Source: Candidatus Hermodarchaeota archaeon (GTDB taxonomy: Archaea > Asgardarchaeota > Hermodarchaeia > Hermodarchaeales > Hermodarchaeaceae). From it: 27,275 bases of DNA. The notes beneath the pieces were generated by a model. That model did not search any database. It worked only from the letters and a program-made list of their open reading frames with translations, and was not told the origin of the DNA. Position numbers and translations under genes: made by a program. The stretch is taken from the NCBI GenBank assembly GCA_016840065.1, contig JAEOTB010000007.1, forward strand, positions 1 to 27,275, written 5' to 3'. Shown here one piece after another: positions 8,377-27,275 of this stretch (position 1 is the stretch's first letter; each line of letters starts with the position of its first letter).

Positions 8377-9684
8377 TTGACAAAGGTTGGAATCAGATGC
8401 GAAGATAAACCCTACGAGCTACGAACACCAATACCACCCCAATTCGTCAAAGCCTTCTCCGAAAAACACGGCTTCGATTTCGTTGTTGAACACTCAGACC
8501 AGCGAGCATACACTGACGAGGAATATAAACAAGTAGGCGCTCAGATCAGCAAGTTACGTGGAAGCCCAGTAAAAATCATCTTTGGGCTCAAGGAAATACC
8601 CAGTGCAGAATTCGAAAAGGACAAGGTATACTTGTTCTTCGCGCACGTGATCAAAGGTCAGTCCTATAACATGGATATGCTACGGCAAATCCTGAAAATG
8701 GGTGCAACCCTCATTGACTATGAACGAATCGTGGAAGTCCCCTCAGAGAAAAGGTTGGTTTTCTTCGGTAATTGGGCGGGTTTTGCGGGTATGTCGGAAA
8801 CACTGCGAGCGTTTGGTCAACGCCTCGAATATGAAGGCATCAAACCTAACCCGTTCAAGCTGAAACCCACCTATGAGTATGATGGTTTGGGCGCGCTAGA
8901 GGATGCCGTTCGACAGATGGGTAATCGCATCAAAGAAGAGGGGTTCGCGAAGGAACTAGCTCCCCTTGTGACTGGGTTTATTGGATACGGTAATACGAGT
9001 AAAGGAGCGCAAGCAATTTTCGACCTACTACCGCACAAGGAAGTCGAACCGAATCAACTGGCTGATTTAGAACCAAATCCGCACCTCCTCTACAAGGTTG
9101 TATTCCGTGAGGAAGACACGGTACGCCCCCGCAACCCAGATGCAACATTCGAATTACAGCACTACTACAAACATGGTAAGGAACTCTACGAATCCCAGTT
9201 TATGGAGTATGTGCCCTACATCACAGTCCTGATGAACTGTATTTACTGGACTGATAAATACCCAAAGATGATTACAAAGGCAGAACTCAGTGAGCATTGG
9301 GAAGAAACAGGCGGAAAGCCGCGCTTGAAAATCGTGGGAGATATAAGCTGCGACATAGAAGGAGCAATCGAATTCACGCTCGACTCAACAAAACCATACA
9401 AACCCTGCTTCGTCTATGACCCAACCAAAGGAAAAATAAAACTAGGCATAGAGGGTAAGGGAGTTGCTGTAATGGCAGTAGATAATCTTCCAACAGAACT
9501 ACCTCGTGAGGCATCAACCTCCTTTAGTGAGTCGCTCCAACGGTTTGTCCCAGCAATAGTTAAGGCGGATTATACTGTACCTTTTAACAAGTTGAATCTA
9601 CCACCGGAGGTCCTGAAGGCTACTATTGTTTACAGAGGCGAACTGACACCAGAATATGAGTATTTGAAACAGTACCTCAAATGA
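8377..9684 (+). CDS. Lysine-ketoglutarate reductase / saccharopine dehydrogenase (lysine-forming)-type enzyme (AlaDh/PNT fold; LKR domain of AASS)
   Basis: Motifs: GIRCEDKPYELRTP, GLKE, FFAHVIKGQSYNM, LIDYE, RLVFFGNWAGFAG, GYGNTSKGA, NCIYW, DISCD..G.IEF, MAVDNLPTELPREAS, G.LTPEYEYL. Confidence 0.88.
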   Translation: MTKVGIRCEDKPYELRTPIPPQFVKAFSEKHGFDFVVEHSDQRAYTDEEYKQVGAQISKLRGSPVKIIFGLKEIPSAEFEKDKVYLFFAHVIKGQSYNMDMLRQILKMGATLIDYERIVEVPSEKRLVFFGNWAGFAGMSETLRAFGQRLEYEGIKPNPFKLKPTYEYDGLGALEDAVRQMGNRIKEEGFAKELAPLVTGFIGYGNTSKGAQAIFDLLPHKEVEPNQLADLEPNPHLLYKVVFREEDTVRPRNPDATFELQHYYKHGKELYESQFMEYVPYITVLMNCIYWTDKYPKMITKAELSEHWEETGGKPRLKIVGDISCDIEGAIEFTLDSTKPYKPCFVYDPTKGKIKLGIEGKGVAVMAVDNLPTELPREASTSFSESLQRFVPAIVKADYTVPFNKLNLPPEVLKATIVYRGELTPEYEYLKQYLK

Positions 9685-9738
9685 GAACTACATGAAAACG
9701 TGAATAGTAAGGAACTTGAATTTCGGAGATTGATTGTT

Positions 9739-11055
9739 ATGAAGCATGTTTTATGTCTTGGAGCGGGTCTTGTAGCTAGACCTTACATTGATTATTTGTT
9801 GAAGAAGGGATTTCAGGTCACTGTTGCCAGCCGGACCGTCAGTAAGGCGGAACGGATGGTAAACGGGCACGCCAATGGTATCCCTGTTGCTTTCGACATC
9901 CAGCGGGAACCAGAGCGACTCAAGGAGCTTGTGAAACCTGCTGACTTGGTGACCTCGTTATTACCCTACACGCATCATGTTACTGTGGCAAACGAGTGCT
10001 TACGCCAAGGAAAGCACATGGCCACCACATCATATGTTTCTGATGGGATGCGGGCGTTGGATGCTAAGGCTAAGAAAGCAGGAATTACTTTGTTGAACGA
10101 GTGTGGTGTGGATCCAGGCCTTGATCATATGTCAGCTATGAAAATAATCCATGAAGTTCAGGCAGCTGGAGGAAAAGTCACGAGTTTCACTAGCTTCTGT
10201 GGTGGCTTACCTGCCCCAGATGCCAACAACAACCCGTTTGGTTACAAATTGTCTTGGAGCCCTAGAGGCGTCTTGCTTGCAGGTACTAATAGCGCCAAGT
10301 TCATCAGAGACGGAAAGGAGGTACTGATTCCTTCGGAGGAGCTCTTTAACAGTTGCCACGAAGAAGAGGTTCCTGGTCTAGGAAGGTTTGAAGGTTACCC
10401 GAATAGGGACTCGACACCCTATATCGAGATATATGGCGTGAAGCACGCAGAGACGATGATTCGGGGTACTTATCGGTATCCTGGTTGGTGTGCGACCGTA
10501 TACGATTTTGGCAGGCTTGGACTTCTAGACCTTACGGAACAGGATTTCAAAGGTAAGACCTACGACGGCTTCGTGCGGGGGCTTGTGAAAGCAAAGTCTG
10601 GCACAGACACTAGAACTGCTGTTGCTAACTTCCTCAAGAGGGACAGAAGCCATAACGTCTTGGATCGGTACGAGTGGTTGGGACTGTTTGAGGATCGTCC
10701 TATCCCGCTTGAGAAAAGCACAGCGCTTGATGTAGTTTGTACTTTGTTTGAGGAGAAGCTTCAGTATACGCCAGGTGAACGGGATATGCTTGTTCTGCAA
10801 CACAAGTTCGGAATCGAGTATGCTGGTGGTAGGAAGGAACGGATACGATCTACTTTGATTGACTACGGCATTCCGCATGGCGATACATCCATGAGCCGCA
10901 CCGTCGCTTACCCTGTTGCGATTGCTACACGCCTCATACTTGAGGGCGAGATAAACCTAACTGGCGTACAAATCCCCATAATTCCCGAAATCTATGAACC
11001 AATCCTAGCTGAAGTAGCTGAGTTCGATATCCGCTTCAAAGAAGAGACATACTAG
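9739..11055 (+). CDS. Saccharopine dehydrogenase/reductase (glutamate-forming; Lys9/AASS SDH-domain-like)
   Basis: Rossmann start KHVLCLGAGLVA, then SLLPY..H, TTSYVS, NECGVDPGLDHMSA, SFCGGLPAP..NNNPFGYKLSWSPRG, EGYPNRDS, RGTYRYPG, ERDM, MSRTV. The ORF track starts at 9700; ATG 9739 with upstream GGAG is preferred. Confidence 0.93.
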   Translation: MKHVLCLGAGLVARPYIDYLLKKGFQVTVASRTVSKAERMVNGHANGIPVAFDIQREPERLKELVKPADLVTSLLPYTHHVTVANECLRQGKHMATTSYVSDGMRALDAKAKKAGITLLNECGVDPGLDHMSAMKIIHEVQAAGGKVTSFTSFCGGLPAPDANNNPFGYKLSWSPRGVLLAGTNSAKFIRDGKEVLIPSEELFNSCHEEEVPGLGRFEGYPNRDSTPYIEIYGVKHAETMIRGTYRYPGWCATVYDFGRLGLLDLTEQDFKGKTYDGFVRGLVKAKSGTDTRTAVANFLKRDRSHNVLDRYEWLGLFEDRPIPLEKSTALDVVCTLFEEKLQYTPGERDMLVLQHKFGIEYAGGRKERIRSTLIDYGIPHGDTSMSRTVAYPVAIATRLILEGEINLTGVQIPIIPEIYEPILAEVAEFDIRFKEETY

Positions 11056-11149: not shown

Positions 11150-12067
11150 GTGGCTATGGAGCGCAGAACTGCTGTAGCCCTAGCAATCATCGCTGCCTGT
11201 ATCACCCTTGATGTAGCTTGGGCTTGGCTTAATTACATCATTCCAAGCTTATCCGGTCCTCTGGATATGGTAGCAATATTACCTGGTCCCATTTTGACCG
11301 ATTGGCTGGTGATCATGTATGTGTTCCCACTTGCCTCGGTAGTACTCTATCTGCTGCTGAGTAGTGTCACTGCGCGTTGGTTGGTACTTCCGCTAAACAA
11401 AGTCTTTAACCCTGGAAAGGAGGTTTTCTTCTACGCACCAGTGACTCCTCGACCCCGTCCAGTGTATTCGATACTCCGCCGTGCGTTTTTTAATTTACTC
11501 TTGATGATGGCGTTAGCACTGACTATCACCCGATTCTTACCAACACAAGTCGCGTGGTTTCTACCAGCGAACCCAAACTTGGCTGATATTTTCAATGAGA
11601 TGAATCAAGCCATCCTTTTGATGCCACTGTTCTTCCCGTTGTTGGCATTTATTCTGCCTGCCACATGGCTCATCGAGGACTCCAATATTGTATTCCACAC
11701 CTATCCGTCATGTGGTCCACAGGAGCTGCGTGTAGGTGGACGAACGCTTCTTGACTATCTGAAAGGATTTGCCAGTATCTTCGTCCTCATTGATTACTTG
11801 CGGATGGTCTTCAACGTTCCAGGACTTATCACGTTTAGTACAATACCTAGTACTCTTGGCGGTCTTTGGCCATGGGTCCCCCCGTGGTTCTTCTTCCTCA
11901 TCACCTTCATCAACCCATTCATCCTCTTGTACTTGCCATTGGTTGCCCTCCTCCTCTATCACCAGTTCTTCCATCGGATTCAACCTGGCTTCCAAGCAGC
12001 GATGAAACGGAGGGGTATAAAGCAGCTCCTTAGCGTGGGCGAGGTAGCGGAGTCAGATATGAAATAG
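11150..12067 (+). CDS. Hypothetical multi-pass membrane protein (about 6 hydrophobic segments)
   Basis: 305-aa ORF with several long hydrophobic stretches, ending 15 bp before the LLM gene; no family recognised. Confidence 0.75.
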   Translation: MAMERRTAVALAIIAACITLDVAWAWLNYIIPSLSGPLDMVAILPGPILTDWLVIMYVFPLASVVLYLLLSSVTARWLVLPLNKVFNPGKEVFFYAPVTPRPRPVYSILRRAFFNLLLMMALALTITRFLPTQVAWFLPANPNLADIFNEMNQAILLMPLFFPLLAFILPATWLIEDSNIVFHTYPSCGPQELRVGGRTLLDYLKGFASIFVLIDYLRMVFNVPGLITFSTIPSTLGGLWPWVPPWFFFLITFINPFILLYLPLVALLLYHQFFHRIQPGFQAAMKRRGIKQLLSVGEVAESDMK

Positions 12068-13051: not shown

Positions 13052-13573
13052 GTGGTGTTGGTTGTGCCGAAAAACAGGACAAAGCCGAGACTGGAGGCTG
13101 CCTTCGATTATGATGATGCATATGCGTGCACGGTTAGCCCGCTGAAAGGACGGGATATTCCCGAGATTAGCGGAGAGGAGAGTAGGCAATATGGGCAGTT
13201 CAAGATTGTACGCAGGGGGAGTAAGCCCACTAAAGAGGAGGTGGAGAGCGGTGGCGCCTTCGCGGGTGATTTCCACATTTTGGATATCCTTTGTTTTCTC
13301 CATGAAGGCGAATGGAAGGATGTGTTTTGGAAGACTATTGAGCGGGAGGAATTTTATTGGGAGCGAGGGAGGATTGAGAAGTCTCGAGGTAGCCCGCTTC
13401 AGCAGGTGATGTATGTTGATGTCGAAACCAACATCCTTTACATAGAAGATGAGCACGATGTACTCTACTGCTCCGAGAACCAGTTTAGGTGGGTCATGTA
13501 CCAAGTAAAACCAGAGAAACGCCCCTATTATAGGCGAATAAGTAAGCTCCGAAAGTTTAAACTTCCAAACTGA
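13052..13573 (+). CDS. Hypothetical protein (173 aa)
   Basis: Fills the gap between the LLM gene and the first GH3 gene in the same orientation; start uncertain; no family recognised. Confidence 0.65.
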   Translation: MVLVVPKNRTKPRLEAAFDYDDAYACTVSPLKGRDIPEISGEESRQYGQFKIVRRGSKPTKEEVESGGAFAGDFHILDILCFLHEGEWKDVFWKTIEREEFYWERGRIEKSRGSPLQQVMYVDVETNILYIEDEHDVLYCSENQFRWVMYQVKPEKRPYYRRISKLRKFKLPN

Positions 13574-13632
13574 GCCCCCCTTCTGATCGAGTGCACAAAT
13601 ATTTTAGAAGTTCAGGAAGGTCAAATAATTTG

Positions 13633-15189
13633 ATGTCTCAAACAGCAATTGTGAAGGCGATTTACGACCGCTTCTGTAAACCTTTGTTGAAGCAATTAGA
13701 GGATCCTGTCGGTTCTCAGGAAAAATGCCTACGCAATGTCCTGAAGAGGGCAAAAGATACTGTTTACGGTAAGCAGCATGGCTTCGCTGACATCCGATCA
13801 ATCGAAGAGTTCCAACGTGCTGTACCTATCAATAACTTCGAGTCGCTGCAACCTTATATTTCCCGGGCAATGGCGGGTGAGCAGAACATACTTTTCCCTG
13901 ATAAGATTCTATGTTTTCTGATCACCTCGGGAACAACTGGTGACCCGAAGCTTTTCCCCTTTGGTGAACACCGTGTCCAAGACACAATTATCAATGTCCT
14001 TCGGTCTGGTGCCTTCTATGTCGTTCACCACGATCGCTGGGACACTTTGGAAGGGCGCAGGCTGGTTTTCCCTGCACCCTCTTCAATAGGTCAGAAAATC
14101 GGTGAATACGAAGTTGCCTTCATGTCGGGTGCGCTAGCTGTTGCCCCGCTGCCACCGCAATTGAAGATGTTACAGACATCAGAGAGACGGCGTGTACCAC
14201 CCCTAGAAGTAGACAATATTCTAGACTGGGATGAGAAGTTCTATCTTTGTGCCCGGTACTCCGTCTCGGCAGATGTTCGTTCAGCAACAGGAATAACCTC
14301 AAACATCGTTTCGTTGCTTCGCAAGATTAGTACAGATTACCTCGACCGCTTGCTTGCAGACCCAGAAGTAGACTCGGTTACTAAAACAAAGCTCCGAGGA
14401 GCAGAATCAGATGGGGTAATTGACCTACAAAAGATTTGGCCTAACTTCCGAGTCCTCCTTCATGGAGGAGTCTCCATAACACCCTTCAGAAGAGCAATTA
14501 AAGATCTAATGGGTGAAATCGATCTCTGGGAGGGCTATGCAGCCACTGAAGGATGGCTAGCTACCCAGATTTATCTAGACAAGGGGATGATGCCCTATGT
14601 GGGCACGATGTTCTATGAATTCATCCCAGAGGATGACGAAGCAGCAACGCCAATTCCCCTAAGCGACGTTAAAGCTGGTAAGCCATATCGTGTGCTGGTT
14701 ACAAACTCTGGTGGGTTCTATCGCTATGACATCGGGGATGTAATCGAGTTCACAGGCACAGAACCGCTGACACTGCGCGTGGTCGGCCGCAAAGCCAGTA
14801 TAGTTAGCTTAGCTGGTGAACGCATGTCTGAGGAACTCATCCTAAGAGCACTAGAGCTGGTGTGCAGGGATTTTGGAATAGGCTTTGTGGATTTTGCGCT
14901 GTTACCTGAAGTCTCTGCTGAAGTAATTCGCTATCATCTGTTCATTGAATTCACACAACTACCTGATGATTTTGAGGATTTTACAGGTCAAGTCGATGAG
15001 CGCCTAGGTGCAATCAACATCATGTATGGGGCACAGCGCCAGGCCAACGTTATACATCGTCCGATTATCATACCTGTTCAACCGGGGGGCTTCGAAGCCA
15101 TGCTGAAAGGACAAGAAAAGATTCTAGGGCAAACAAAGGTACCACGGCTCTTGACGCTAGAACTCAGTCGATTGATTCCTCGACTTTAG
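13633..15189 (+). CDS. GH3-family acyl-acid amido synthetase, paralog 1
   Basis: Motif I ITSGTTGDPK, motif II YAATEG, motif III FYRYDIGD, C-terminal QTKVPR, N-terminal QE..L..VL....T.YGK.HGF..I.S.EEFQ..VP. Start set at ATG 13633 by comparison with the paralogs. Confidence 0.92.
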   Translation: MSQTAIVKAIYDRFCKPLLKQLEDPVGSQEKCLRNVLKRAKDTVYGKQHGFADIRSIEEFQRAVPINNFESLQPYISRAMAGEQNILFPDKILCFLITSGTTGDPKLFPFGEHRVQDTIINVLRSGAFYVVHHDRWDTLEGRRLVFPAPSSIGQKIGEYEVAFMSGALAVAPLPPQLKMLQTSERRRVPPLEVDNILDWDEKFYLCARYSVSADVRSATGITSNIVSLLRKISTDYLDRLLADPEVDSVTKTKLRGAESDGVIDLQKIWPNFRVLLHGGVSITPFRRAIKDLMGEIDLWEGYAATEGWLATQIYLDKGMMPYVGTMFYEFIPEDDEAATPIPLSDVKAGKPYRVLVTNSGGFYRYDIGDVIEFTGTEPLTLRVVGRKASIVSLAGERMSEELILRALELVCRDFGIGFVDFALLPEVSAEVIRYHLFIEFTQLPDDFEDFTGQVDERLGAINIMYGAQRQANVIHRPIIIPVQPGGFEAMLKGQEKILGQTKVPRLLTLELSRLIPRL

Positions 15190-15272
15190 ACTGCGACCTG
15201 TCTGCCAGCTACGGTAGATTTCAATGGTATAGTGCTAAGCCTTTTAGCCAATACCTGTAAAGACTGGTGCGT

Positions 15273-16838
15273 ATGTTGTCTAGCAAGCAGTTAGTACAGG
15301 TTGTTTTCGACCGATATTGCAAACCAAGGCTGAAAGACCTAGAGGATCCCTTTGGAACCCAAGAGAAGGTTCTACGCAAGATTTTGAGGCGTGCAAAGGA
15401 TACGGTTTTTGGTAAACAACATTGCTTTTCAGATATCAAATCAGTCGAAGACTTCAAGCGCTTAGTGCCCGTAACAACCTATGATTATATGCAGCCCTAT
15501 GTTGCCCGAGTAATACAGGGTGAGGAAAACATCCTTTTTCCTGAAAAGACGATGTGCATGTTGGTTACAAGCGGAACCACAGGTAGTCCCAAGCTATACC
15601 CATTCAGCGAGTATCGAGTAAGAGAGATTATCTTTAGTGTATTTGAGGCGACAGCCTTCTATGTGGTTTTTTCCGGTAATTATGATGTAATGGAAGGCAA
15701 ACGCCTTTCGTTTCCAGCCCCACCGTCGTTAGGTGAAAAAATCGGGGAATACGATGTTGCTTTCTATTCTGGAGCGCTTACAGTAGCCCCTATACCACCA
15801 GAACTACAGAAGTTAATCGAAGGAAGAGCGGATCGACGTGTCCCACCAAGAGACATTGACAAGATTCTTGATTGGGACAAGAAATTCTATCTCACAGCTC
15901 GCTATGCAGTTGCAGCTGACGTCCGTTCAACCGCAGGTGTTACTTCAAATACTGTGTCGCTGCTTCGCAAGATAAGTACACAATACCTCGATCGCCTCCT
16001 TGCTGATCCAGAGCTCGACAAAGAGACTAAATCTAGACTTCGAGATGTGTCTCCAGATGGTGTGATAAATCTACAAGAACTTTGGCCAAAGTTCAGTGTT
16101 GTCACCTCGTCAGGTGTGTCTCTCACGCCGTATAAACGCATTATACGGAAACTTGTTGGTGATGCTGATATTCGAGAACACTATGTTGCGACTGAGGGAG
16201 AATTGGGTGGCCAAGTTTTCATGGATAAGGGCATGATTCCTAATGTTTCACGAATATTTTTCGAGTTCATCGCCGATGACGAGGAAGACGCCGTGCCAAT
16301 CCCGTTAAGCGATGTGAAGCTGCGAACACACTATCGGGTGCTCATTACGACCCTTGGTGGATTTTATCGGTATGATATAGGCGATCTTGTGGAGTTTACT
16401 GACACTCAGACTCCTGTATTTACGGTTATAAGTAGGAAGAAGAGCATTGTCAGCTTGGCAGGAGAACGTTTGAGTGAGGAAATCATACTCCGAGTTCTTG
16501 AACGAGCCTGTGAACAGCATGGAATCGGATTCATCGATTTCGCGCTGTTACCAGAGATTTCGGAGGATGTGATTCGTTATCACCTCTTCATCGAGTTCAC
16601 CAAGCTACCTGAGGACCTCGAGGAATTCACGAGCATAGTTGATAAACGTCTAGGGGCAGCAAACATTCACTACGCAGCGCAACGCCAAGCAAATGTGTTG
16701 CATTTACCTGTCATCATTCCAGTCCAGCCTGGAGGCTTTGAAGCTTTGCTCCAGAAAATGGACAAGGTGATTGGGCAGACGAAGGTGCCACGCCGCTTGA
16801 CCCCTGAACTCAGCCGTCTGATTCCCATTCTGAAATAA
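15273..16838 (+). CDS. GH3-family acyl-acid amido synthetase, paralog 2
   Basis: VTSGTTGSPK / YVATEG / FYRYDIGD / QTKVPR. Confidence 0.92.
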   Translation: MLSSKQLVQVVFDRYCKPRLKDLEDPFGTQEKVLRKILRRAKDTVFGKQHCFSDIKSVEDFKRLVPVTTYDYMQPYVARVIQGEENILFPEKTMCMLVTSGTTGSPKLYPFSEYRVREIIFSVFEATAFYVVFSGNYDVMEGKRLSFPAPPSLGEKIGEYDVAFYSGALTVAPIPPELQKLIEGRADRRVPPRDIDKILDWDKKFYLTARYAVAADVRSTAGVTSNTVSLLRKISTQYLDRLLADPELDKETKSRLRDVSPDGVINLQELWPKFSVVTSSGVSLTPYKRIIRKLVGDADIREHYVATEGELGGQVFMDKGMIPNVSRIFFEFIADDEEDAVPIPLSDVKLRTHYRVLITTLGGFYRYDIGDLVEFTDTQTPVFTVISRKKSIVSLAGERLSEEIILRVLERACEQHGIGFIDFALLPEISEDVIRYHLFIEFTKLPEDLEEFTSIVDKRLGAANIHYAAQRQANVLHLPVIIPVQPGGFEALLQKMDKVIGQTKVPRRLTPELSRLIPILK

Positions 16839-16939
16839 GGATGCTCCACTGCAACATAATCCCTAGCTCGAGTGATTAGAAGAAATTTCTTAATGCGGGT
16901 GTGATAAACACTTTTAGCCGTTCATGGAGAGAAAGAGCT

Positions 16940-18523
16940 ATGCTTTCTAGGGAGTCCATGGTGAAAACATTCTATGAGAAGTTCTGCCGCCCGACACTAA
17001 AGCGGCTGGAAGACCCCATGGCTGCGCAAGAAGCCTGTTTGCGGAAGATTCTGAAGCGTTGTAAGGGAACTCTCTTTGGGAAGCAACACGGGTTCGGCGA
17101 CATCCGTTCCATCGAAGAGTTCCAGAACAAAGTGCCAATCTTAACCTATGAGAGTATGCAGCCATATATTAGCAAGATTGCCAATGGTGAGCAAAATATT
17201 CTCTATCCCGATGAGACGCTGGTTTTTATGTTGAGTGCGGGAACCACGGGGACGCCCAAGTACTTCCCGTTTGGTGCAAAGCGGTACGAAGAGCTTGTAC
17301 TAGACGGATTAATTGGGAGTGTGTTCTTCATCGTACACACTGGGCATTACGATGTGATGGACGGCGCAATCCTATCGATGAGAGCTCCACCAAGATTGGG
17401 TCAGAAATTTGGTATTTATGATGTATCCTTCTTTTCGGGTGCGATTACCAATGTTCCTCCACCACACCGATTGAAAGCGCTACAGCGATTCCAAACTGGC
17501 AGTAGCCTGCGAAGTGTGCCACCTCGGGAGGTAGACCTTGTCCGGGACTACGACACAAAATACTATCTAACCGCGCGATATTCCGTTGCAGCTGATGTCC
17601 GAGCAGCTAGCGGCGTGACCTCAAAATTGGTATTCCAATTAATCAAGACGAGTACAGAATATCTCGACCGCTTCCTAGCAGACCCCGAGTTAGATGCGAA
17701 GACTAAGACTAAGCTCAGAAAAGCCTGCTCAGACGGTGTTATTGACCTAAAGAGTGTTTGGCCAAATTTTCGAGTTGTTCTCTCAGGAGGGACATCAGCT
17801 ACACCTTATCAGCGGATGATTCATGACCTCCTAGGAGATTGTTGCATTTGGGAGACATTCGGAGCGACCGAGGTTTCGGTAGGCTACCAGATTTTTCCTG
17901 ATCAAGGTATTGTTCTTTCGGTGGACAGGTGCTTCTTCGAGTTTATCCCCGATGACGAAGAGGATTCAGCTGCGGTCCCACTAAGTGATGTGAAGACAAA
18001 TACTCCCTACCGAATTATCGTGACGTCAAACGGCGGGTTTTACAGATATGATCTTGGAGACTTGGTGACATTTGTGGATTTAGAACCGCCTGTCTTTGGT
18101 GAAATCAGCCGAAAGAAGGCATTGGTCAACCTTGGTGGAGAGCGCCTGAGTGAGGAGGTCTTCCTCAGGGTTATTGAACGGTCCTGTGAGCAGTTCGGGA
18201 TTGACTTTGTGGAATTCGCACTCTTACCTGAATTTAAGGGGAAAACTGCCTGCTATCACCTTTACATCGAATTTATGCCAAACCTATCCGACCTAGAAGG
18301 ATTTACAGGTGATTTAGACCGTAGACTTCGAACTGCAAGCTTCTTCTACGATTTGAAACGAAAGCAGGGTGTTTTTACCCCTCCTGTAATCATTCCCGTA
18401 AGGCTAGGCGGTTTTGATTTTGTACTTCAGAAACTGGGTAAAGATTCAGCCTCGGGTAAAATGCCTCGTCTTCTTACGCCAGAACTCAGCCGCATGATTC
18501 CCACACTCCCCCAGTCATCCTAA
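16940..18523 (+). CDS. GH3-family acyl-acid amido synthetase, paralog 3
   Basis: LSAGTTGTPK / FGATEV / FYRYDLGD / GKMPR. Start at ATG 16940 by paralog comparison. Confidence 0.92.
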   Translation: MLSRESMVKTFYEKFCRPTLKRLEDPMAAQEACLRKILKRCKGTLFGKQHGFGDIRSIEEFQNKVPILTYESMQPYISKIANGEQNILYPDETLVFMLSAGTTGTPKYFPFGAKRYEELVLDGLIGSVFFIVHTGHYDVMDGAILSMRAPPRLGQKFGIYDVSFFSGAITNVPPPHRLKALQRFQTGSSLRSVPPREVDLVRDYDTKYYLTARYSVAADVRAASGVTSKLVFQLIKTSTEYLDRFLADPELDAKTKTKLRKACSDGVIDLKSVWPNFRVVLSGGTSATPYQRMIHDLLGDCCIWETFGATEVSVGYQIFPDQGIVLSVDRCFFEFIPDDEEDSAAVPLSDVKTNTPYRIIVTSNGGFYRYDLGDLVTFVDLEPPVFGEISRKKALVNLGGERLSEEVFLRVIERSCEQFGIDFVEFALLPEFKGKTACYHLYIEFMPNLSDLEGFTGDLDRRLRTASFFYDLKRKQGVFTPPVIIPVRLGGFDFVLQKLGKDSASGKMPRLLTPELSRMIPTLPQSS

Positions 18524-18566
18524 CCCCGTCGAAAAGTACTTCTGCCCTGGCATTGCAGTCTATTAT

Positions 18567-20165
18567 GTGATATCTCTAAAGGCGCTTGTAAAACCAGTCT
18601 ATGACAGGCTATGCACGCCTGTTTTAAAGCGTCTAGAGGATGTTGCAGCTGCACAGGAGGAGCGATTGCGAAGGGTAGTGAAGCGCTGCAAGAACACCCT
18701 GTACGGTAAAAAGTACCGATTCTCCGATATCAAATCAATCAAGGACTTCCAGCAAAACGTTCCATTCAGTAATTTTGAACGCATGCAGCCCTACATTCTT
18801 CGCTGCACCAGAGGCGAGCAGAATATCCTCTTCCCCGATAAGATTCTGATGTTTATAGCTACGTCCGGGACGAGCGGCACAGCGAAGTACTATCCGCTGG
18901 GAGAACAACGAGTGAAAGAAATCCTTCTCGAATTCAGTCAACTTGGCCTCTTCTTTGTAGCCCATACAGGGCACTATGATATCATGGATGGTGCGTCGTT
19001 GGTTGTGAGGGCTGCACCACGCTTGAAACAGATGATTGGTGAATACGAGGTGGCCCACTTAGGCGGAGCCTTCTCAAGTTTTCCGCTTCCAGGACGGTTG
19101 CAGGCACTTGGTAACTTTCGGATAGCTGCAGGGGATAGGTTAATCCCGCCTCAAGAAGTCGTAGAGCTACGGGACTGGGAGAGGAAGGCGTATCTTACGG
19201 CTAGGCATGCTGTGGCGGCAGATATCCGTATGATCGGGGGTGTAACGTCCAAGTCGGTTGGACAACTAATCACCACCCGCAATGACTACTTGGACCGCCT
19301 GCTTTCAGACCCAGAACTTGATGAAAAGACCAAGGCCAAGCTTCGAAGAGTGTCTTCTGAAGGTAGAATAGACTTACAGGAACTCTGGCCTAATATCCGC
19401 GCGGTGTTTACGGGAGGTGTATCGATAACGCCTTTTCGTCGGATTTTACGCGACCTTCTTGGAGATGTGACAATCTGGGAGTCCTATTGGGCAAACGAAG
19501 CAACAATGGGTTCTCAAATCTTCCCAGATAAGGGTCTTATTCCTGAGATTAGCCATACTTTTTTCGAGTTCATCCCATACGACGACGCAGAGGCAGAGCC
19601 AATCCTGCTATGTGACGTGAAACGCGACACACAATACCGTGTTTTAGTTACCAATACTGCCGGGTTTTATCGATTTGAACTCGGAGATATAGTGACCTTC
19701 TCTGCCTTGGACCCACCAGTCTTTGGGGAAATCAGTCGAGGAAGCGCACTCATAGACATTGTTCAGGAAAGGATGAGTGAGTCGCTGTTTCTCCGAGTAC
19801 TTGACCGGGCTTGTGAGCAGTTCAGAACCAGCTTTGTGGATTTTGCTATTCTTCCTGAAATGACCACCGACGTTGTTCGTCATGTTCTTTTCATCGAATT
19901 CACCACCCCTCCAGATGATTTGGAGAAGTTCACGGATGCCGTCGACCTGCGCCTTAAGCGAGCTAGTTTTGCCTATTATACAAAACGGAAGCAGAGAGCC
20001 TTACACCGCCCAGCTATTATCCCTGTACAACAAGGCGGGTTCAATGCCCTGATACGAAAACTTGGTAGAGATTCAGTGCAGGGTAAGGTTACACGTCTCC
20101 TAACCCCTGAAACCAGCCGATTGATACCTAAATTAAAACCATCGAGGAAAGGGTTAAAGATTTAA
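18567..20165 (+). CDS. GH3-family acyl-acid amido synthetase, paralog 4
   Basis: ATSGTSGTAK / YWANEA / FYRFELGD / GKVTR. GTG start. Confidence 0.92.
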   Translation: MISLKALVKPVYDRLCTPVLKRLEDVAAAQEERLRRVVKRCKNTLYGKKYRFSDIKSIKDFQQNVPFSNFERMQPYILRCTRGEQNILFPDKILMFIATSGTSGTAKYYPLGEQRVKEILLEFSQLGLFFVAHTGHYDIMDGASLVVRAAPRLKQMIGEYEVAHLGGAFSSFPLPGRLQALGNFRIAAGDRLIPPQEVVELRDWERKAYLTARHAVAADIRMIGGVTSKSVGQLITTRNDYLDRLLSDPELDEKTKAKLRRVSSEGRIDLQELWPNIRAVFTGGVSITPFRRILRDLLGDVTIWESYWANEATMGSQIFPDKGLIPEISHTFFEFIPYDDAEAEPILLCDVKRDTQYRVLVTNTAGFYRFELGDIVTFSALDPPVFGEISRGSALIDIVQERMSESLFLRVLDRACEQFRTSFVDFAILPEMTTDVVRHVLFIEFTTPPDDLEKFTDAVDLRLKRASFAYYTKRKQRALHRPAIIPVQQGGFNALIRKLGRDSVQGKVTRLLTPETSRLIPKLKPSRKGLKI

Positions 20166-20190
20166 TTACTACAAGACTCGATTTTAGGAC

Positions 20191-21759
20191 ATGAGTTTTC
20201 GGGAAGCGGCTTTCAGACTTGTCCATAAACAGTTATGTCAGCCCTTCCTAGAGAAGCTGAAGGACCCAGGGGCAGCGCAGGAGGCGTGTCTAAGGAAGAT
20301 TCTACACCGCTGCAGAAATACACTCTACGGCAAAGACTACGGATTCGCTGACATCACATCCATCGAGGAGTTCCAGCAAAGGGTTCCCATCACTACCATT
20401 GATTCTATGCAGCCGTATATTGCCCGGTGTGCGAAAGGCGAGCAGAACATTCTCTTCCCTGATAAGATTCTTTGTTTCATAAGGAGCTCTGGAACCACTG
20501 GTGACCCCAAGTACTTCCCTCTAGGTGAATATCGTGTTGGTGAGTACGCACGAGAGAGAGCTAGAGGGGGTCTCTTCTATATTATACATGGTGAGCATTA
20601 CGATTTACTGGACGGCGCAAGTATATTCATACATTCTCCCCCAAAAACGGAAGAGAAGTGTGGCGTGTACGATGTTGGTGTTGCTTCTGGCGCTTTTTAT
20701 GCGGCGTATTCATCGATGACACAGAATCAATGGTTTCTACGGGAGATGGGGAACTCGACAATCCCGACTCCCGAGGTGAATGCGATTCATGATTGGGAGA
20801 AAAAAGTTTACCTCACTGCGCGTCTTGCCGTTGCTGCAGATGTCCGAATGGCCGCTGGAGTAACTGCCGAGGTTGTTTCACTTTTACGAAAAATCAACAC
20901 AGAGTTCTATGACCAGCTGCTCGCTGATCCTGAGCTGGATCCTCAGACGAAAGCTAAGCTGCGATGCGTATCCAAGAACCGGGTTATTAATCTCCAAGAG
21001 CTCTGGCCAAATTTCACAATCTTTTGTGCTAGTAGTGTCTCCGTTACACCATTCAGACGAATCATTCAAAATCTCCTTGGAGATGTGGAAATCTGGGACA
21101 CCTATAATGCTGCAGAGGGGACTGGAGGTCTCCAGATTTATCCAGATGGTGGCATAGTCCCAATAGTCGACCACACCTTCTTCGAGTTCAAACCCACTAA
21201 CGTGGAGGATGCGAAGCCGATTCCAATTAGCGATGTGCAGATTAATACTCCATACCAGATTCTCATGACAAACCATGGAGGCTTCTATCGGTACAAGTTA
21301 GGAGACGTGGTCACCTTTGCCTCCTTGAACCCACCAGAATTCGGAGAAATCACCCGAATGAAGGCGGTACTAAATCTTGTTGGCGAGCGGCTACGAGAGG
21401 AGCTGCTGCTCCGCGCTCTAGATTATGCTTGTCAGCAGCAGGGGACCAGTTTTGTTGAGTGCGCATTGTTACCTGAGGTCACCACTGATTTCACACGTTA
21501 CCAGCTCTTCGTCGAGTTCACCCACGTCCCCAGCGACCTTCAGGAATTCGCAGGCGATGTCGATTCACATCTTAGAAAGGTAAGCATCCGCTTCGATTAT
21601 TCGAGGAAGAGCAATACACTATCACCCATTCTAATTATACCTGTTAGACCTGGAGGCTTTGATACCCTTCTGTTGGAAATGGGTAAGAGTCCTGGAACGA
21701 GTAAGGTTCCCCGACTACTCACGCCTGAACTCAGCCGGCTAATTCCTCTGCTAAAATAA
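20191..21759 (+). CDS. GH3-family acyl-acid amido synthetase, paralog 5
   Basis: RSSGTTGDPK / YNAAEG / FYRYKLGD / SKVPR. Confidence 0.92.
   Translation: MSFREAAFRLVHKQLCQPFLEKLKDPGAAQEACLRKILHRCRNTLYGKDYGFADITSIEEFQQRVPITTIDSMQPYIARCAKGEQNILFPDKILCFIRSSGTTGDPKYFPLGEYRVGEYARERARGGLFYIIHGEHYDLLDGASIFIHSPPKTEEKCGVYDVGVASGAFYAAYSSMTQNQWFLREMGNSTIPTPEVNAIHDWEKKVYLTARLAVAADVRMAAGVTAEVVSLLRKINTEFYDQLLADPELDPQTKAKLRCVSKNRVINLQELWPNFTIFCASSVSVTPFRRIIQNLLGDVEIWDTYNAAEGTGGLQIYPDGGIVPIVDHTFFEFKPTNVEDAKPIPISDVQINTPYQILMTNHGGFYRYKLGDVVTFASLNPPEFGEITRMKAVLNLVGERLREELLLRALDYACQQQGTSFVECALLPEVTTDFTRYQLFVEFTHVPSDLQEFAGDVDSHLRKVSIRFDYSRKSNTLSPILIIPVRPGGFDTLLLEMGKSPGTSKVPRLLTPELSRLIPLLK
21496..21566 (+). repeat. 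71-bp exact repeat, copy A (inside GH3 paralog 5)
   Basis: cgttaccagctcttcgtcgagttcacccacgtccccagcgaccttcaggaattcgcaggcgatgtcgattc, identical to 23167-23237. Confidence 0.92.
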
Positions 21760-21864
21760 GGCGTAATGGACGTTCCATCCTGCAACGGGTGCTAATCCAC
21801 TAGGAGAGCTCTTTGTTCTTACGAAAGTACACATTTATCTTTGACACTACTCTAGAAAAGGTAT

Positions 21865-23427
21865 ATGAGCCTAAGAGATGCAGCGGTTAGACTGTCCTAT
21901 GAGAGGTTGTGCCGACCATATCTGAAGAGGCTGAAGACTCCGACAGCGACACAGGAACGCTATCTACGGAAGGTACTGAAACGGTGTAAGGACACCGTCT
22001 ATGGTAAGGAGTACGGCTTTGCCGACATTAAATCAGTCGAGGAGTTCCAGCGTACGGTCCCCGTCACCACCTACGCAAGTATGGAGCCTTACATCGCCCG
22101 GTGCATGAAAGGCGAGCAGAACGTTCTCTTTCCCGACAAGATTGTATATTTTATGACAACCTCCGGTACTACGGGCGCTCAGAAATACTATCCTTTAAGC
22201 GAGCAACGCGTGAGAGTGTACGCGCATGACGCCGCAAGGAGGACACTCTTCTTCATCGTACATGGTAATCATTTCGATATGATGGATGGCGCGATAATAA
22301 TGCTTCATGCTCCTCTATCCACAGGAGAGAAAATCGGCCCCTATGATGTGGCTCAAGCTTCAGGTGCATTTACCGCAGCGATGGCTGCACACCTACCAGG
22401 CTTAGATTATGGAGTGGGAGAGAATTACCTTGTCATTCCGCCTTTTGAAGTGAACGCGATGACCGACTGGGACAAGAAAATCTATCTTACTGCGCGCTAC
22501 GCTGTTGCCGCGGACGTCCGGATGACTGCGGGGTTAACATCCGTTATGGTGTCGCTTCTCCGAAAAATCAGCACTGAGTTTCATGACCAGCTGCTCGCGG
22601 ACCCAGCACTGGATGCTGAGACGAAGACCAAACTTCGGCGCGTCTCCACAGATGGCATCATCAATCTCCAAGAATTGTGGCCCAACTTCACCCTGTTTGG
22701 TGGTGGTGGGACATCCATTACGCCCTTCCGGCGGGTTATCCGTGACCTCCTTGGAGACGTGGAAATCTGGGACGGCTACGGAGCCACTGAGGCAACAATG
22801 GGGGCTCAAATCTATCCAGACAAAGGTATAGTCTTAACCGTCGATAAGACCTTCTTCGAATTCCAGCCCCTTGAGGAGGGAGCAATTCCTCTACCGCTGA
22901 GCGATGTGAAGACTAATACTCCCTACCAAGTTCTCATTACGAACGATACGGGGTTCTTCCGATACCTGATAGGAGACATCGTCACCTTTGTTGCATTGAA
23001 TCCTCCCGAGTTGGGAGAAATCACTCGCATGAAAACCCTGGTTAATATTGTGGGTGAGCGAATGCGGGAGGAGATGCTCCTTCGCGCGCTAGAGCATGCA
23101 TGTGAACGGCAGGGTACAAGTTTTCTTGATTTCGCGTTGTTGTCAGAGACCACTACAGACGTCACGCGTTACCAGCTCTTCGTCGAGTTCACCCACGTCC
23201 CCAGCGACCTTCAGGAATTCGCAGGCGATGTCGATTCTCATCTCCAGAGCTTAGGTTTTTATTATGAGTTCTTTCGGAAAAGTGGTGCTTTGGGGATACC
23301 CCTCATAATCCCAGTTCAACCCAGGGGGTTTGAGGTGTTGCTACGAACGATGGGCAAAGATCTTGAATCTGGTAAGGTTCCCCGACTATTAACCCCTGAA
23401 CTCAGCCGCATGTTACCTCGCCTCTAG
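21865..23427 (+). CDS. GH3-family acyl-acid amido synthetase, paralog 6
   Basis: TTSGTTGAQK / YGATEA / FFRYLIGD / GKVPR. Confidence 0.92.
   Translation: MSLRDAAVRLSYERLCRPYLKRLKTPTATQERYLRKVLKRCKDTVYGKEYGFADIKSVEEFQRTVPVTTYASMEPYIARCMKGEQNVLFPDKIVYFMTTSGTTGAQKYYPLSEQRVRVYAHDAARRTLFFIVHGNHFDMMDGAIIMLHAPLSTGEKIGPYDVAQASGAFTAAMAAHLPGLDYGVGENYLVIPPFEVNAMTDWDKKIYLTARYAVAADVRMTAGLTSVMVSLLRKISTEFHDQLLADPALDAETKTKLRRVSTDGIINLQELWPNFTLFGGGGTSITPFRRVIRDLLGDVEIWDGYGATEATMGAQIYPDKGIVLTVDKTFFEFQPLEEGAIPLPLSDVKTNTPYQVLITNDTGFFRYLIGDIVTFVALNPPELGEITRMKTLVNIVGERMREEMLLRALEHACERQGTSFLDFALLSETTTDVTRYQLFVEFTHVPSDLQEFAGDVDSHLQSLGFYYEFFRKSGALGIPLIIPVQPRGFEVLLRTMGKDLESGKVPRLLTPELSRMLPRL
23167..23237 (+). repeat. 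71-bp exact repeat, copy B (inside GH3 paralog 6)
   Basis: Identical to 21496-21566. Confidence 0.92.
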
Positions 23428-23491
23428 CGTGACCTTAGGGGCTAATTCTTATGTGAAGCACGGGTAATTATTGTGCTGTAGTGAATCCTCC

Positions 23492-25075
23492 ATGCTGTCA
23501 AGTAAAGCCTTAGTGAAGCTGTTCTATGATCAGAAATGCCGACCTGCTTTGAAGCGGTTAGAGAACCCTGCAGCTGCTCAAGAGAAGTGTTTGAGGAGGA
23601 TACTGAAACACAATAAGGGAACGGTGTATGGCAAGGAACACGGGTTTGCAGAAATAAAATCTATCGAAGAATTTCAGCGGATAATTCCGCTCACATCCTA
23701 TCAGAGTATGGAGCCCTACATTGACCGGTGCAAACAGGGAGAGCAAAACGTCCTCTTTCCAGGTGACATCCTCTACTTTCTAGCTACTGCTGGAACGACG
23801 GGCACGTCGAAAGTTTTCCCATTAGGATGGAAGCGGGTCGAGGAGATTATTCTTGAAGGGGCGCTGATGGGCACCTTCTTTCTTGTCCACACTGGATGCT
23901 ATGAGGTAATGGATGGCTTAATGTTAACCATAGCTGCTCCTCCAAGCACTGGTGAGAAGTTTGGCGATTACGACGTAGCATATCTTTCGGGAGCGATGTC
24001 TAACCTATCTCTTCCCTCTGAGCTAGGGAAATACCAACGCTCCCTTGCAGGGCTAGGCCGCTATCGGGTTCCCCCTAGTGAAGTTGACAGGATTACCGAC
24101 TGGGGGGAAAAGTTCTATCAGACTGCCCGATATGCTGTTGCTGCTGATATCCGATATGCATCAGGTGTCACCGCAAATATGGTTGCGCTTCTGCTCAAAA
24201 TCCACTCTGAATACTATGAGCGCTTACTCGCTGATTCAGAACTGGACAACGAAACTAAAACCAAGCTTAGACGCGTTTCTAAGGACGGTATCATTGACTT
24301 GCGGAAGCTTTGGCCCAATTTCTGTGTATTCGGATCTGGTGGAATGTCTGTCACACAGCACCGACGAATAATACATGACCTTCTGGGGGACTGCTACATC
24401 TGGGAGTCATACTCAACAACCGAGGCCTCCATAGGGATCCAAATCTATCCCGACAAGGGCATAATCCCGGTCGTCGACTTTACCTTTCTGGAATTCATAC
24501 CAGAAGGAGAGAAAACTGGTGAACCGATACCCCTGTGTGATGTGAAGCGACACACCCCTTACAGAATAATCGTGACAAATAATGCTGGATTCTACAGGTT
24601 CGATATAGGCGATATGGTGACCTTTAGTGAATTAGACCCACCAGTTTTTGGGGAAATCAGTAGAAGAACCTCCTTAGTGAATATTGTGGGAGAACGAGTT
24701 AGTGAGGAGATGCTTCTCCGTGCGCTGGAGCAGGCTTGTGAACAGCAGGGAATTGCTTTTGTGCATTTCTCATTGTTACCAGAAGTCACGAAGGAGATTA
24801 CTCGCTATTATATCTTCGTCGAGTTCACACATCCCCCGGAGGATATTGACGAGTTCGTTGGCATTGTTGACACCTACCTGAGAAGTATTGGCTTGTATTA
24901 CGACTCCCAACGTCAAAATGGCGTACTGTCACCACCAGTCATTATCCCTGTGAAACCAGGTGGCTTCGATCTTGTACTCCAGCAATTAGAGAAGGTTCCA
25001 GGGCAAGCCAAGGTTCCTCGACTCATATCACTTGAGCTTAGTAAGCTAATTCCCAGACTAAAAACCGCCAAATGA
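23492..25075 (+). CDS. GH3-family acyl-acid amido synthetase, paralog 7
   Basis: ATAGTTGTSK / YSTTEA / FYRFDIGD / QAKVPR. Start at ATG 23492 by paralog comparison. Confidence 0.92.
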   Translation: MLSSKALVKLFYDQKCRPALKRLENPAAAQEKCLRRILKHNKGTVYGKEHGFAEIKSIEEFQRIIPLTSYQSMEPYIDRCKQGEQNVLFPGDILYFLATAGTTGTSKVFPLGWKRVEEIILEGALMGTFFLVHTGCYEVMDGLMLTIAAPPSTGEKFGDYDVAYLSGAMSNLSLPSELGKYQRSLAGLGRYRVPPSEVDRITDWGEKFYQTARYAVAADIRYASGVTANMVALLLKIHSEYYERLLADSELDNETKTKLRRVSKDGIIDLRKLWPNFCVFGSGGMSVTQHRRIIHDLLGDCYIWESYSTTEASIGIQIYPDKGIIPVVDFTFLEFIPEGEKTGEPIPLCDVKRHTPYRIIVTNNAGFYRFDIGDMVTFSELDPPVFGEISRRTSLVNIVGERVSEEMLLRALEQACEQQGIAFVHFSLLPEVTKEITRYYIFVEFTHPPEDIDEFVGIVDTYLRSIGLYYDSQRQNGVLSPPVIIPVKPGGFDLVLQQLEKVPGQAKVPRLISLELSKLIPRLKTAK

Positions 25076-25260
25076 AAACCTTCAACAGCCCTTCTTAACT
25101 AAATAAAGAGCAGGGCCACCCAATTTCTTTCCAAGAATCCATCTCGGGATTGTGCAGGAAACGAAATTGTATTAAGGACTTCTTTGCACAAGGCGGCAAC
25201 TTTAAATCATTATTGATAATTGTGCCTACCCCTTCAATCTCTTATCTAGGTGTTCATTTA

Positions 25261-26013
25261 ATGCCGAAAGCCAAACCAAAAGCCAAACCGAAACCCAAAC
25301 CAAAACGACGAGTCAAACAACGATTAGCAATACGATGCAAAAACGTGGTAAAGAACTATGAAGACGCCGATGTTATTGTTGAAGTCCTCAAAGGTTTGGA
25401 CTTCGAGGTAAGGACTGGAGAATTGGTCGCTATTGTGGGTGCTAGTGGTAGTGGTAAAACCACTCTCATCAATCTCCTAGCTTGCTTGGACCAGCCAACT
25501 TCTGGTGAAATACAGATAGATGACAAAGTTCTGGGCGGACTCAGCGACGATGAACTCTCTATGATTCGTCGACATAAAATCGGGATAGTATTCCAAGGAT
25601 TCTATCTCCTAGATATCCTCGATGCAAGGGAGAACGTTGAAGTCCCAATGATTTTCGACGAAAGGCCCAAGGATGAGAGAACCAAGCGCGCGCTTGAACT
25701 TCTAGATTTAGTTGGGATGAGGGATTCCGCGGAGCAGTATCCAAACGAGATGTCGGGTGGTCAGATGCAGCGTGTTGCAGTTGCACGCGCACTTGCGAAT
25801 AGTCCAGTGATTCTTCTTGCAGACGAGCCGACTGGAAATCTAGACACTCAAACCGGAACTGAGATTATTCAGCTCTTCCAGGATTTAGCCCACAAATACA
25901 ACATGGCACTAGTTGTAGCGACTCACGACCCTGACGCGGCAAGTGCTGCAGACCGTGTAGTGGTGCTACGCCATGGAAAGCTCCATTCAGAAACCAGCAA
26001 GTATCAAGAGTAG
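25261..26013 (+). CDS. ABC transporter ATP-binding protein, LolD/MacB/FtsE-like
   Basis: Walker A GASGSGKTT, RRHKIGIVFQ (Q-loop), signature MSGGQMQRVAVARAL, Walker B/D-loop ILLADEPTGNLD, H-loop ATHD. ATG 25261 is preferred over the ORF-track start at 25150. Confidence 0.93.
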   Translation: MPKAKPKAKPKPKPKRRVKQRLAIRCKNVVKNYEDADVIVEVLKGLDFEVRTGELVAIVGASGSGKTTLINLLACLDQPTSGEIQIDDKVLGGLSDDELSMIRRHKIGIVFQGFYLLDILDARENVEVPMIFDERPKDERTKRALELLDLVGMRDSAEQYPNEMSGGQMQRVAVARALANSPVILLADEPTGNLDTQTGTEIIQLFQDLAHKYNMALVVATHDPDAASAADRVVVLRHGKLHSETSKYQE

Positions 26014-26024
26014 GTGCAGAGATA

Positions 26025-27275
26025 TTGAGTGATAAGTCCTCGTCGAGACCACCACTGGTTGGTGAAAAGGGGAGTGGATTGTATGTTGTTAGCTATGTTG
26101 GTGGCAGTCTACGCAAGCACAAAATGCGATCACTAAGTCTCTTACTAGGTGTTGTTATCGGAGTTGCCCTAGTGGCTAGTGTTTTTGTGTGGACTGACAC
26201 TGGTACAAGAGTTGCTATTGATGATTACTTTGAAGACAACATCTTCCAGTTCGCTGTGACTCCTCAAGGGGGTACAAACCCACCAGATATTAGTTCTATC
26301 CAGACATGGGCGACAAATCAGTACCTAACGGAGTCTTCATTCATCGTACATCGCACTTACGGATTCTTTGGTATTGAAGACATGAACAATAGTGCGCCGT
26401 ACATGCCACCCGCCGCTCCTTACCCGTACACCTACGGCATCAAAGATGCTGAAGTACTATTAGTGACACAGACTTTTCTTGATGTAATAGCTAGAAAATT
26501 TAACGTGTCCTCAGGCTCTTTTTCAGTACAACCTGATCAATGTCTGGTCAGCGAAAGAGTTGTCGATGATATCTATGACATTCTTAACTATACGATTTCC
26601 GTCGGAGATACCATTGACTTTGCCCTTGCTCAAGATTACAGCTTCAGCCCTTACCCTGCCACATTAGGTGGCATCAATCGATTGAACCTAACGGGAATAG
26701 AGGTTGCAGGCATATATAGCATCACACCAGCCGACGATGTTCTCTACAGTGCCTTCTCCGGGACTCGTCGAAGAAACTATCCCAGTTCTGGCGAGGAACA
26801 GATATTTGGCTGGAATGACGGAGTTATCATGCACCGTGATCAACCAGGAGTTAATCTAGTAACAATTTCCGATGAAGTGCACCAGTCAACGCTACTTATC
26901 CGGGTTAACCCTACAGTAGCTCTCAGCTTTGGGATTGAGAATGTACCTCAACTTCTTAGCAACTACAAACTCCGACTCGGAGTAGACTTTCTAGGCGGAG
27001 TATCTGTTGTTGGAGAACGCCAAATCTTGTATCTGTCACAATACATACAAGCCTACCAGTCAAGACGCACCATGGGTGTCCTAGTAGCGCCTGTGATAGT
27101 TCTCTCAGTATTCTTAACCACCTTTGCAACCAACATCTTTCTCAGCGGCCGACGAGCTGAAGTAGCAATTCTCCGAGCCCGAGGAGCTAGCTTTCGCCAG
27201 CTCTATGCCGCCTTTATATTGGAATTTATAGTCATTGGAATCATCGGGTTAGTTATAGGTTCAATACTCAGTCTA
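26025..27275 (+). CDS. FtsX/MacB-like ABC transporter permease, 3' truncated by the window edge
   Basis: Not in the ORF track because it has no stop in the window. The frame is open from TTG 26025 to the end: LRKHKMRSLSLLLGVVIGVALVASV (TM1), a large extracellular domain with N-x-S/T sequons (NNS, NVS, NYT, NLT), then RRAEVAILRARGASFRQLYAAFILEFIVIGIIGLVIG (FtsX motif). Confidence 0.9.
   Translation, partial: MSDKSSSRPPLVGEKGSGLYVVSYVGGSLRKHKMRSLSLLLGVVIGVALVASVFVWTDTGTRVAIDDYFEDNIFQFAVTPQGGTNPPDISSIQTWATNQYLTESSFIVHRTYGFFGIEDMNNSAPYMPPAAPYPYTYGIKDAEVLLVTQTFLDVIARKFNVSSGSFSVQPDQCLVSERVVDDIYDILNYTISVGDTIDFALAQDYSFSPYPATLGGINRLNLTGIEVAGIYSITPADDVLYSAFSGTRRRNYPSSGEEQIFGWNDGVIMHRDQPGVNLVTISDEVHQSTLLIRVNPTVALSFGIENVPQLLSNYKLRLGVDFLGGVSVVGERQILYLSQYIQAYQSRRTMGVLVAPVIVLSVFLTTFATNIFLSGRRAEVAILRARGASFRQLYAAFILEFIVIGIIGLVIGSILSL

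Follow-up and report, generated by a model that had tools for sequence, protein, structure and literature searches.

Seven consecutive, diverged genes for putative GH3 enzymes (acyl-acid amido synthetases) form a tandem array on contig JAEOTB010000007.1 of a Candidatus Hermodarchaeota archaeon, within the 27,275-nucleotide stretch of DNA that was analysed as a whole and is called the window here. The copies keep their adenosine triphosphate (ATP)-binding residues nearly fixed and differ most at the positions expected to line the substrate pocket. On balance, we favour the view that the array is a library of acid:amine ligases with differing substrates, whose products, probably diffusible N-acyl amides, would serve in chemical interaction.

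An intact GH3 array at a conserved site

The array consists of seven forward-strand open reading frames of 520–540 residues at 13591–25075 (the ATG start codon of copy 1 is at 13633), which are separated by gaps of 25–105 nt and contain no internal stops. All seven score above the Pfam cut-offs for GH3, GH3_M and GH3_C, and none reaches that of PF00501 (AMP-binding). Pairwise identities of 47–63% in protein and 55–66% in DNA are too low for an assembly duplication. Two runs of a single study, one of which may be the source sample, yield long contigs with near letter-for-letter matches to the stretch. In three sediment runs from a single study, strain differences cluster at 20146–20722, in the 5′ portion of copy 5 and its surroundings, and a depth dip across copies 5–6 in the contigs is too weak for use. 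An AlphaFold model of copy 2, built from 114 rows, finds plant GH3 structures in all of its top 28 PDB matches, with template modelling (TM) scores of 0.79–0.85 to most plant chains, followed by PaaK-type coenzyme A (CoA) ligases as the next structural neighbours at about 0.5. By domain, modelled fold and motifs, the array proteins are thus assigned to the GH3 family.

Like the array, the plant enzymes (JAR1/AtGH3.11, GH3.5/3.6, PBS3/GH3.12 and GH3.15) share this fold and three nucleotide motifs, and have undergone a family expansion with a fixed ATP site and a variable acyl pocket (PMC10747189). The array proteins differ from them in being archaeal, only 17–20% identical, about 50 residues shorter and free of any plant-group pocket signature. 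Prokaryotic GH3 proteins, regarded in an earlier note on this DNA as largely uncharacterised, have a characterised member in OlsH of Singulisphaera acidiphila, which acts in the OlsH-OlsG-OlsI ornithine lipid pathway (PMC12493201). OlsH is also a GH3 protein of about 525 residues with the same motifs, and the array shows 26% identity to an OlsH-like protein encoded in an olsI-olsG-olsH operon. To judge from the sequences, however, the array proteins are not OlsH, because copy 1 scores 184 bits against the NCBIfam OlsH cut-off (NF052613) of 620 and no olsI or olsG orthologs accompany it, the best matches in the genome being weak and on other contigs; moreover, the pocket is different, the clade is separate, and seven diverged copies stand against one.

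Invariant in all seven copies are the P-loop Lys, the Mg-binding Glu of motif II, the Asp of motif III, the hinge Arg and the C-terminal Lys. The earlier note had described seven intact head-to-tail paralogs with a GH3/ANL fold; both statements are borne out, the first by the lack of internal stops, the Pfam domains and the recurrence of the array in congeners, and the second by the Pfam models and the best fit of the copy 2 model to plant GH3. Its claim that all copies retain the GH3 motifs holds for motifs I–III and the C-terminal Lys, with deviations in copies 3, 4 and 7. In copy 3, Phe replaces the motif II Tyr; the C-terminal motif of copy 4 reads KVTR; and the position of JAR1 S101 and OlsH S115 is Ser in copies 1, 2, 4, 5 and 6 and Ala in copies 3 and 7.

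The host belongs to the Hermodarchaeia, in agreement with the Asgard archaeon first proposed, and its congeners are the Hermodarchaeia metagenome-assembled genomes H02S_Hermod_124 (G003), YT_063 (G002) and SRR22302347_concoct_51 (G001). Twelve GH3 genes are present in the host genome, seven in the array and five elsewhere, including two dispersed genes of the array clade (C15, C122), two on C48 and one, conserved family-wide, on C41. In all three congeners the array lies at the same site, with copy numbers of at least 7 in one, 7 in another and 9 in the third and with differing order, between an F420-LLM gene plus a 173-residue gene on one side and genes for an ATP-binding cassette (ABC) ATPase and an FtsX permease on the other. 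Two further contigs likewise carry the array at this site, and at least five copies are seen on a metagenome contig. The sister lineage has one array-clade copy ahead of the same ABC genes, and the genus Hermodarchaeum has the family-wide copy only. GH3 was found in 89 of 301 Asgard genomes, mostly as one copy, and other Asgards mostly have 0–2; these counts are to be read as at least, the best four candidates having been scored per genome, and the family names, except Hermod and Odin, are inferred. Among bacterial loci, 74 of 74 in a limited sample contain one GH3 each within up to 8 kb. Several Asgard families commonly have GH3 as a single copy, and only the array, which was found in this genus at one site, is special.

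The GH3 proteins of Hermodarchaeia form one clade (support 100/99) with three deep branches in trees that include no plant or animal sequences. Within the array branch (100/100), copy 1 is basal, together with the single-copy genes of the sister lineage, copy 2 comes next and the others follow, an order that fits serial tandem duplication. More than ten ortholog classes are recognized, unevenly shared between species and differently ordered. The nonsynonymous-to-synonymous rate ratio (dN/dS) is 0.06–0.16, at dS above 1, for ortholog pairs of six of the seven copies, copy 3 being left out for want of an ortholog; this indicates purifying selection, in place of the decay that the earlier note had associated with values near 1. 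An identical 71-bp tract is shared by copies 5 and 6, at both of which unitigs break, and class E paralogs of G003 contain tracts of 38–44 bp at about the same codons. The C-terminal domain, which lies away from the pocket, has therefore undergone recurring gene conversion. Taken together, the sequences portray birth-and-death evolution under selection, not decay. Expansion is a feature common to the array and plant GH3, as had been supposed, and the two expansions are independent. Plant GH3 profile scores (Asgard 127–165 bits, bacterial 83–110) were considered as a sign of eukaryote ancestry and set aside because alignment diversity confounds them (an array profile gives 78–110); no such ancestry is claimed.

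Variation in the substrate pocket

Fifteen substrate-pocket positions, taken from plant structures and the literature (PMC12493201, PMC4294127, PMC10747189), were mapped by alignment to JAR1. Mismatch at these positions is 0.72 among the seven copies, against 0.48 at all sites (P=0.0008), and 0.66 against 0.46 among 14 class representatives, which bears out the proposed diversification of the copies. Two Bacteroidota clades show above-average conservation at these positions (0.31 vs 0.43 and 0.13 vs 0.36). The class A pocket, that of copy 1, is invariant (identical in five orthologs) and bacterial-like, with His, Ser, Leu and a Gly-Trp pair, the Gly-Trp after motif II being kept as in JAR1. 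In the derived classes, the Trp floor gives way to Asp/Glu, Arg, Tyr and small residues, hinting at polar or varied ligands, and a Trp in copy 4 at the position of JAR1 G331 is likely to narrow the pocket.

A possible GH3 cassette with a membrane partner and the proposed role of the array

The family-wide single-copy GH3 on C41 (L059:4417-6739) is convergent with an orphan gene for a 215-residue seven-transmembrane-helix protein (7TM), and in a second Asgard family, probably Thorarchaeia, many genomes have the same 7TM next to GH3. Co-variation was assessed at 19 Hermodarchaeia loci from trees and identity matrices of GH3, 7TM and flanking genes. The GH3 and 7TM trees have well-supported groups in common that conflict with the genes on both sides. 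Identity matrices of GH3 and 7TM correlate at 0.43, those of either with the flanks at −0.05 to 0.24, and those of the flanks among themselves at 0.67–0.88. The approximately unbiased (AU) test rejects genus monophyly for GH3 (p 6e-8) and 7TM (p 3e-5), while two flanking genes retain genus monophyly and reject the GH3 grouping. The congruence is imperfect, G002 being unplaced in the 7TM tree; in the Thor-like family, rho for GH3 and 7TM is 0.50, with flanks similar and few loci. The predicted inner loops of the 7TM are basic and conserved, and the outer ones variable (0.65/0.47/0.66 vs 0.40/0.42/0.36). No match to the C41 7TM was found in Pfam, NCBIfam or PDB; HisKA_7TM appears in the Atlas only at a 10% share with a score of 0.83 and is a lead only. 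In some cases the 7TM is fused to an Rce1/Abi-type protein or lies next to one.

The overall pattern matches that of an exchangeable cassette of synthase and receptor, in which the C41 GH3 and its 7TM would move between species as a unit, although pairs of enzyme and immunity protein or of enzyme and transporter would give the same co-variation. The agr and comQXPA loci are pherotype quorum-sensing cassettes, and like the C41 pair they combine an enzyme and a membrane partner that co-vary across species borders between conserved flanks. Unlike them, the C41 pair has no peptide, kinase or response regulator, and its 7TM is without an output domain or known family; the array, in turn, lacks matched membrane partners.

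Other Asgard GH3 genes adjoin tailoring enzymes, including B12 radical SAM, ThiF and methyltransferase proteins. On C48 (L057:8814-13694), two GH3 genes are followed by a B12 radical SAM gene, G001 having one GH3 and the same gene, and an independent GH3 in G239 (L179) adjoins three genes related to it. The synthase of OxzAB is of a different family from GH3. The OxzAB oxazolone pathway couples an N-acyl amino acid synthase to a ThiF-nitroreductase (bioRxiv 10.1101/2020.06.11.147165), a pairing resembled in another Asgard family, where ThiF genes adjoin GH3 at four loci, but the nitroreductase domain was not found at these loci and the array itself has no adjoining ThiF. These loci (L156, L169, L170 and L186; P0121-P0123; probably Thorarchaeia) have GH3 beside ThiF-family and Rce1/Abi-family genes, and in this family the 7TM is also found fused to an Rce1/Abi domain.

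For the array, tree and synteny indicate that a founder GH3 ahead of the ABC/FtsX genes was duplicated serially. By the known chemistry of GH3, each copy would adenylate a carboxylic acid with ATP and Mg and, as fold and motifs imply, join the acyl group to an amine, either an amino acid or a related compound, to give an amide. With the ATP site held fixed and the acid/amine pocket diverged at the sequence level, the copies probably take different substrates and yield diffusible N-acyl amides, which would serve as signals or mimics or arise when acids and signals of neighbours are inactivated. Diffusible chemical interaction is proposed because the single-copy paralog resembles one half of an exchangeable cassette of enzyme and receptor-like 7TM. 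The array copies have no 7TM genes matched to them and so would act by broadcasting, mimicry or quenching, not as seven private circuits. A more tentative extension, which we consider possible but doubtful, is that Hermodarchaeia (probably Thorarchaeia too) possess an undescribed GH3 and 7TM signalling system with exchangeable pherotypes, whose signal variants the receptor-less array would broadcast, mimic or quench.

Several observations weigh against a library of ligases serving chemical interaction. Pocket variability extends to the single-copy orthologs of Hermodarchaeia (0.63 vs 0.42), which are of several types, so that it is by itself no proof of paralog specialisation; within most classes the pocket is conserved no more than average (0.21 vs 0.22), and its positions were set by alignment, not from coordinates. 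The motif I Ser is essential in OlsH, whose S115A variant is inactive, and copies 3 and 7 carry Ala at this position, which is Ser in 75 of 75 bacterial homologs and replaced in 8 of 35 array-clade proteins. In addition, genomes of this genus have one 7TM of the C41 family against 10–12 GH3 matches, no such 7TM lies in the window, leaving the array copies without a matched receptor, and the array and cassette clades, deep sisters with about 35% identity, may differ in function.

Detoxification with export, in which environmental aromatic or halogenated acids would be conjugated to amino acids and removed by the adjacent ABC transporter, an M20 peptidase reversing the reaction, draws on the predicted aromatic degradation and reductive dehalogenases of Hermodarchaeia (PMC8163825), and the window itself holds a reductive dehalogenase and an M20 peptidase. 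Wherever this GH3 clade was seen, the ABC/FtsX pair comes after it, and the wide pocket diversity fits as well. We nevertheless judge this unlikely: the sister genus has the ABC/FtsX genes but not this GH3 clade and degrades aromatics with a single GH3, and spending ATP to discard a carbon source would be costly for a sediment anaerobe. The window M20 is dipeptidase-like (PRK06446/PRK08201) and not an ortholog of the founder-side M20 (PRK08554), and M20 as deconjugating partner is set aside for lack of orthologous linkage. That the copies join fatty or isoprenoid acids to various amino acids to form phosphorus-free membrane aminolipids, as the characterised prokaryotic GH3 does (PMC12493201), gains from the common size and fold, the identity to an OlsH-like protein and the bacterial-like pocket retained in copy 1. 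It is improbable in view of the bit score and missing partner genes given above, the Asp, Glu, Arg and Tyr in derived pockets and the reported absence of such lipids from archaea (PMC12971839); lipid-type bacterial homologs, furthermore, conserve the pocket, which is the opposite pattern. Among the signals, lipids and detoxification that the earlier note had offered, the evidence leans towards signal-type chemistry over an OlsH-type lipid.

Catabolic activation, with the copies acting as acyl-adenylate or acyl-CoA ligases that broaden the usable organic acids, has in its favour that PaaK-type ligases come next after GH3 in structure and that acyl-CoA synthetase paralog expansions are common in Asgards. 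It is quite improbable, as the TM score to PaaK is well short of the 0.8 to GH3, no beta-oxidation genes lie beside the array and OlsH forms no acyl-CoA (PMC12971839). Neutral amplification, dosage or decay could account for the varying copy number and order, the dispersed copy that is a remnant in G003 and the class of copy 1 not found in G002. We hold it very improbable, with no broken copy in four arrays as far as assembled, dN/dS no higher than 0.16 (which largely refutes decay), classes persisting across species at dS above 1 and divergence concentrated in the pocket.

Paralog arrays are a familiar genomic form, and the interest of this one, acting as we suppose as a ligase library, lies in a testable enzyme series with a linked cassette. 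Seven paralogs from one genome offer a natural pocket series, predicted to be soluble and well folded, with which the substrate range of prokaryotic GH3 is directly testable in Escherichia coli and which could yield ATP-dependent amide-forming biocatalysts. Were the signalling proposal true, it would amount to a concrete system of small-molecule communication, with a 7TM partner, in Asgard archaea, for which none was found described, and to a convergent GH3 expansion beside plants with hormone-like N-acyl amide signalling. In line with the earlier impression that no such array had been described, a literature search in which subscription journals were thinly covered found no archaeal GH3 study or array, and the Hermodarchaeota paper is silent on GH3.

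Feature coordinates and neighbouring genes

Positions of the array genes, conversion tracts and flanking genes in the window
Feature	Position	Strand	Remarks
173-residue orphan gene (left flank)	13052..13573	+	directly upstream of array in all congeners
GH3 copy 1, class A	13633..15189	+	three Pfam domains; dN/dS 0.06-0.08; basal, slowest-evolving
GH3 copy 2, class B	15273..16838	+	three Pfam domains; AlphaFold model confidence (pLDDT) 92
GH3 copy 3	16940..18523	+	three Pfam domains; Ala at OlsH S115 position; congeners yielded no close ortholog
GH3 copy 4, class D	18567..20165	+	three Pfam domains; Trp at JAR1 G331 position
GH3 copy 5, class E	20191..21759	+	three Pfam domains
71-bp conversion tract, copy 5	21496..21566	+	identical to 23167-23237
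GH3 copy 6, class E	21865..23427	+	three Pfam domains
71-bp conversion tract, copy 6	23167..23237	+	identical to 21496-21566
GH3 copy 7, class Z	23492..25075	+	three Pfam domains; array-terminal in three genomes; dN/dS 0.09, Ala at OlsH S115 position stable in orthologs
LolD/MacB-type ABC ATPase and FtsX-type permease (right flank)	25150..27275	+	follows this GH3 clade whether arrayed or single-copy

A functional link between the ABC/FtsX genes and GH3 is a candidate and unproven. The 173-residue gene is probably a mere neighbour of the array, because a distant homolog sits away from GH3. Promoter and terminator scans of the window gave results below chance, with a bacterial scan model.

One dispersed array-clade GH3 lies between EamA and UPF0047 genes (L058:12249-13820), and at the same site in G003 (L060:8639-8719) it is reduced to a remnant of 27 codons. 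In the sister lineage, a tubulin-family gene is found between unannotated genes for 899 and 337 residues near the single-copy founder GH3 (L194:3009-8110). Upstream of the array, a 305-residue orphan membrane protein (11150-12067, +) has only unnamed Asgard look-alikes; comparison ruled it out as a member of the C41-type 7TM family, and it has no named Atlas match. Adjacent AlaDh/PNT-type and saccharopine dehydrogenase genes (8377-11055, +), also upstream in all congeners, resemble the two halves of eukaryotic AASS, the former being a probable lysine-ketoglutarate reductase. The reductive dehalogenase (4702-6147, −) is above the TIGR02486 cut-off, has an extra N-terminal ferredoxin domain and is syntenic in G001. 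The window further encodes a class I lysyl-tRNA synthetase (757-2409, −), an HflX-type GTPase (2490-3593, −), MscL (7721-8134, +) and a gelsolin protein with two repeats (4028-4636, +), an Asgard eukaryotic signature protein.

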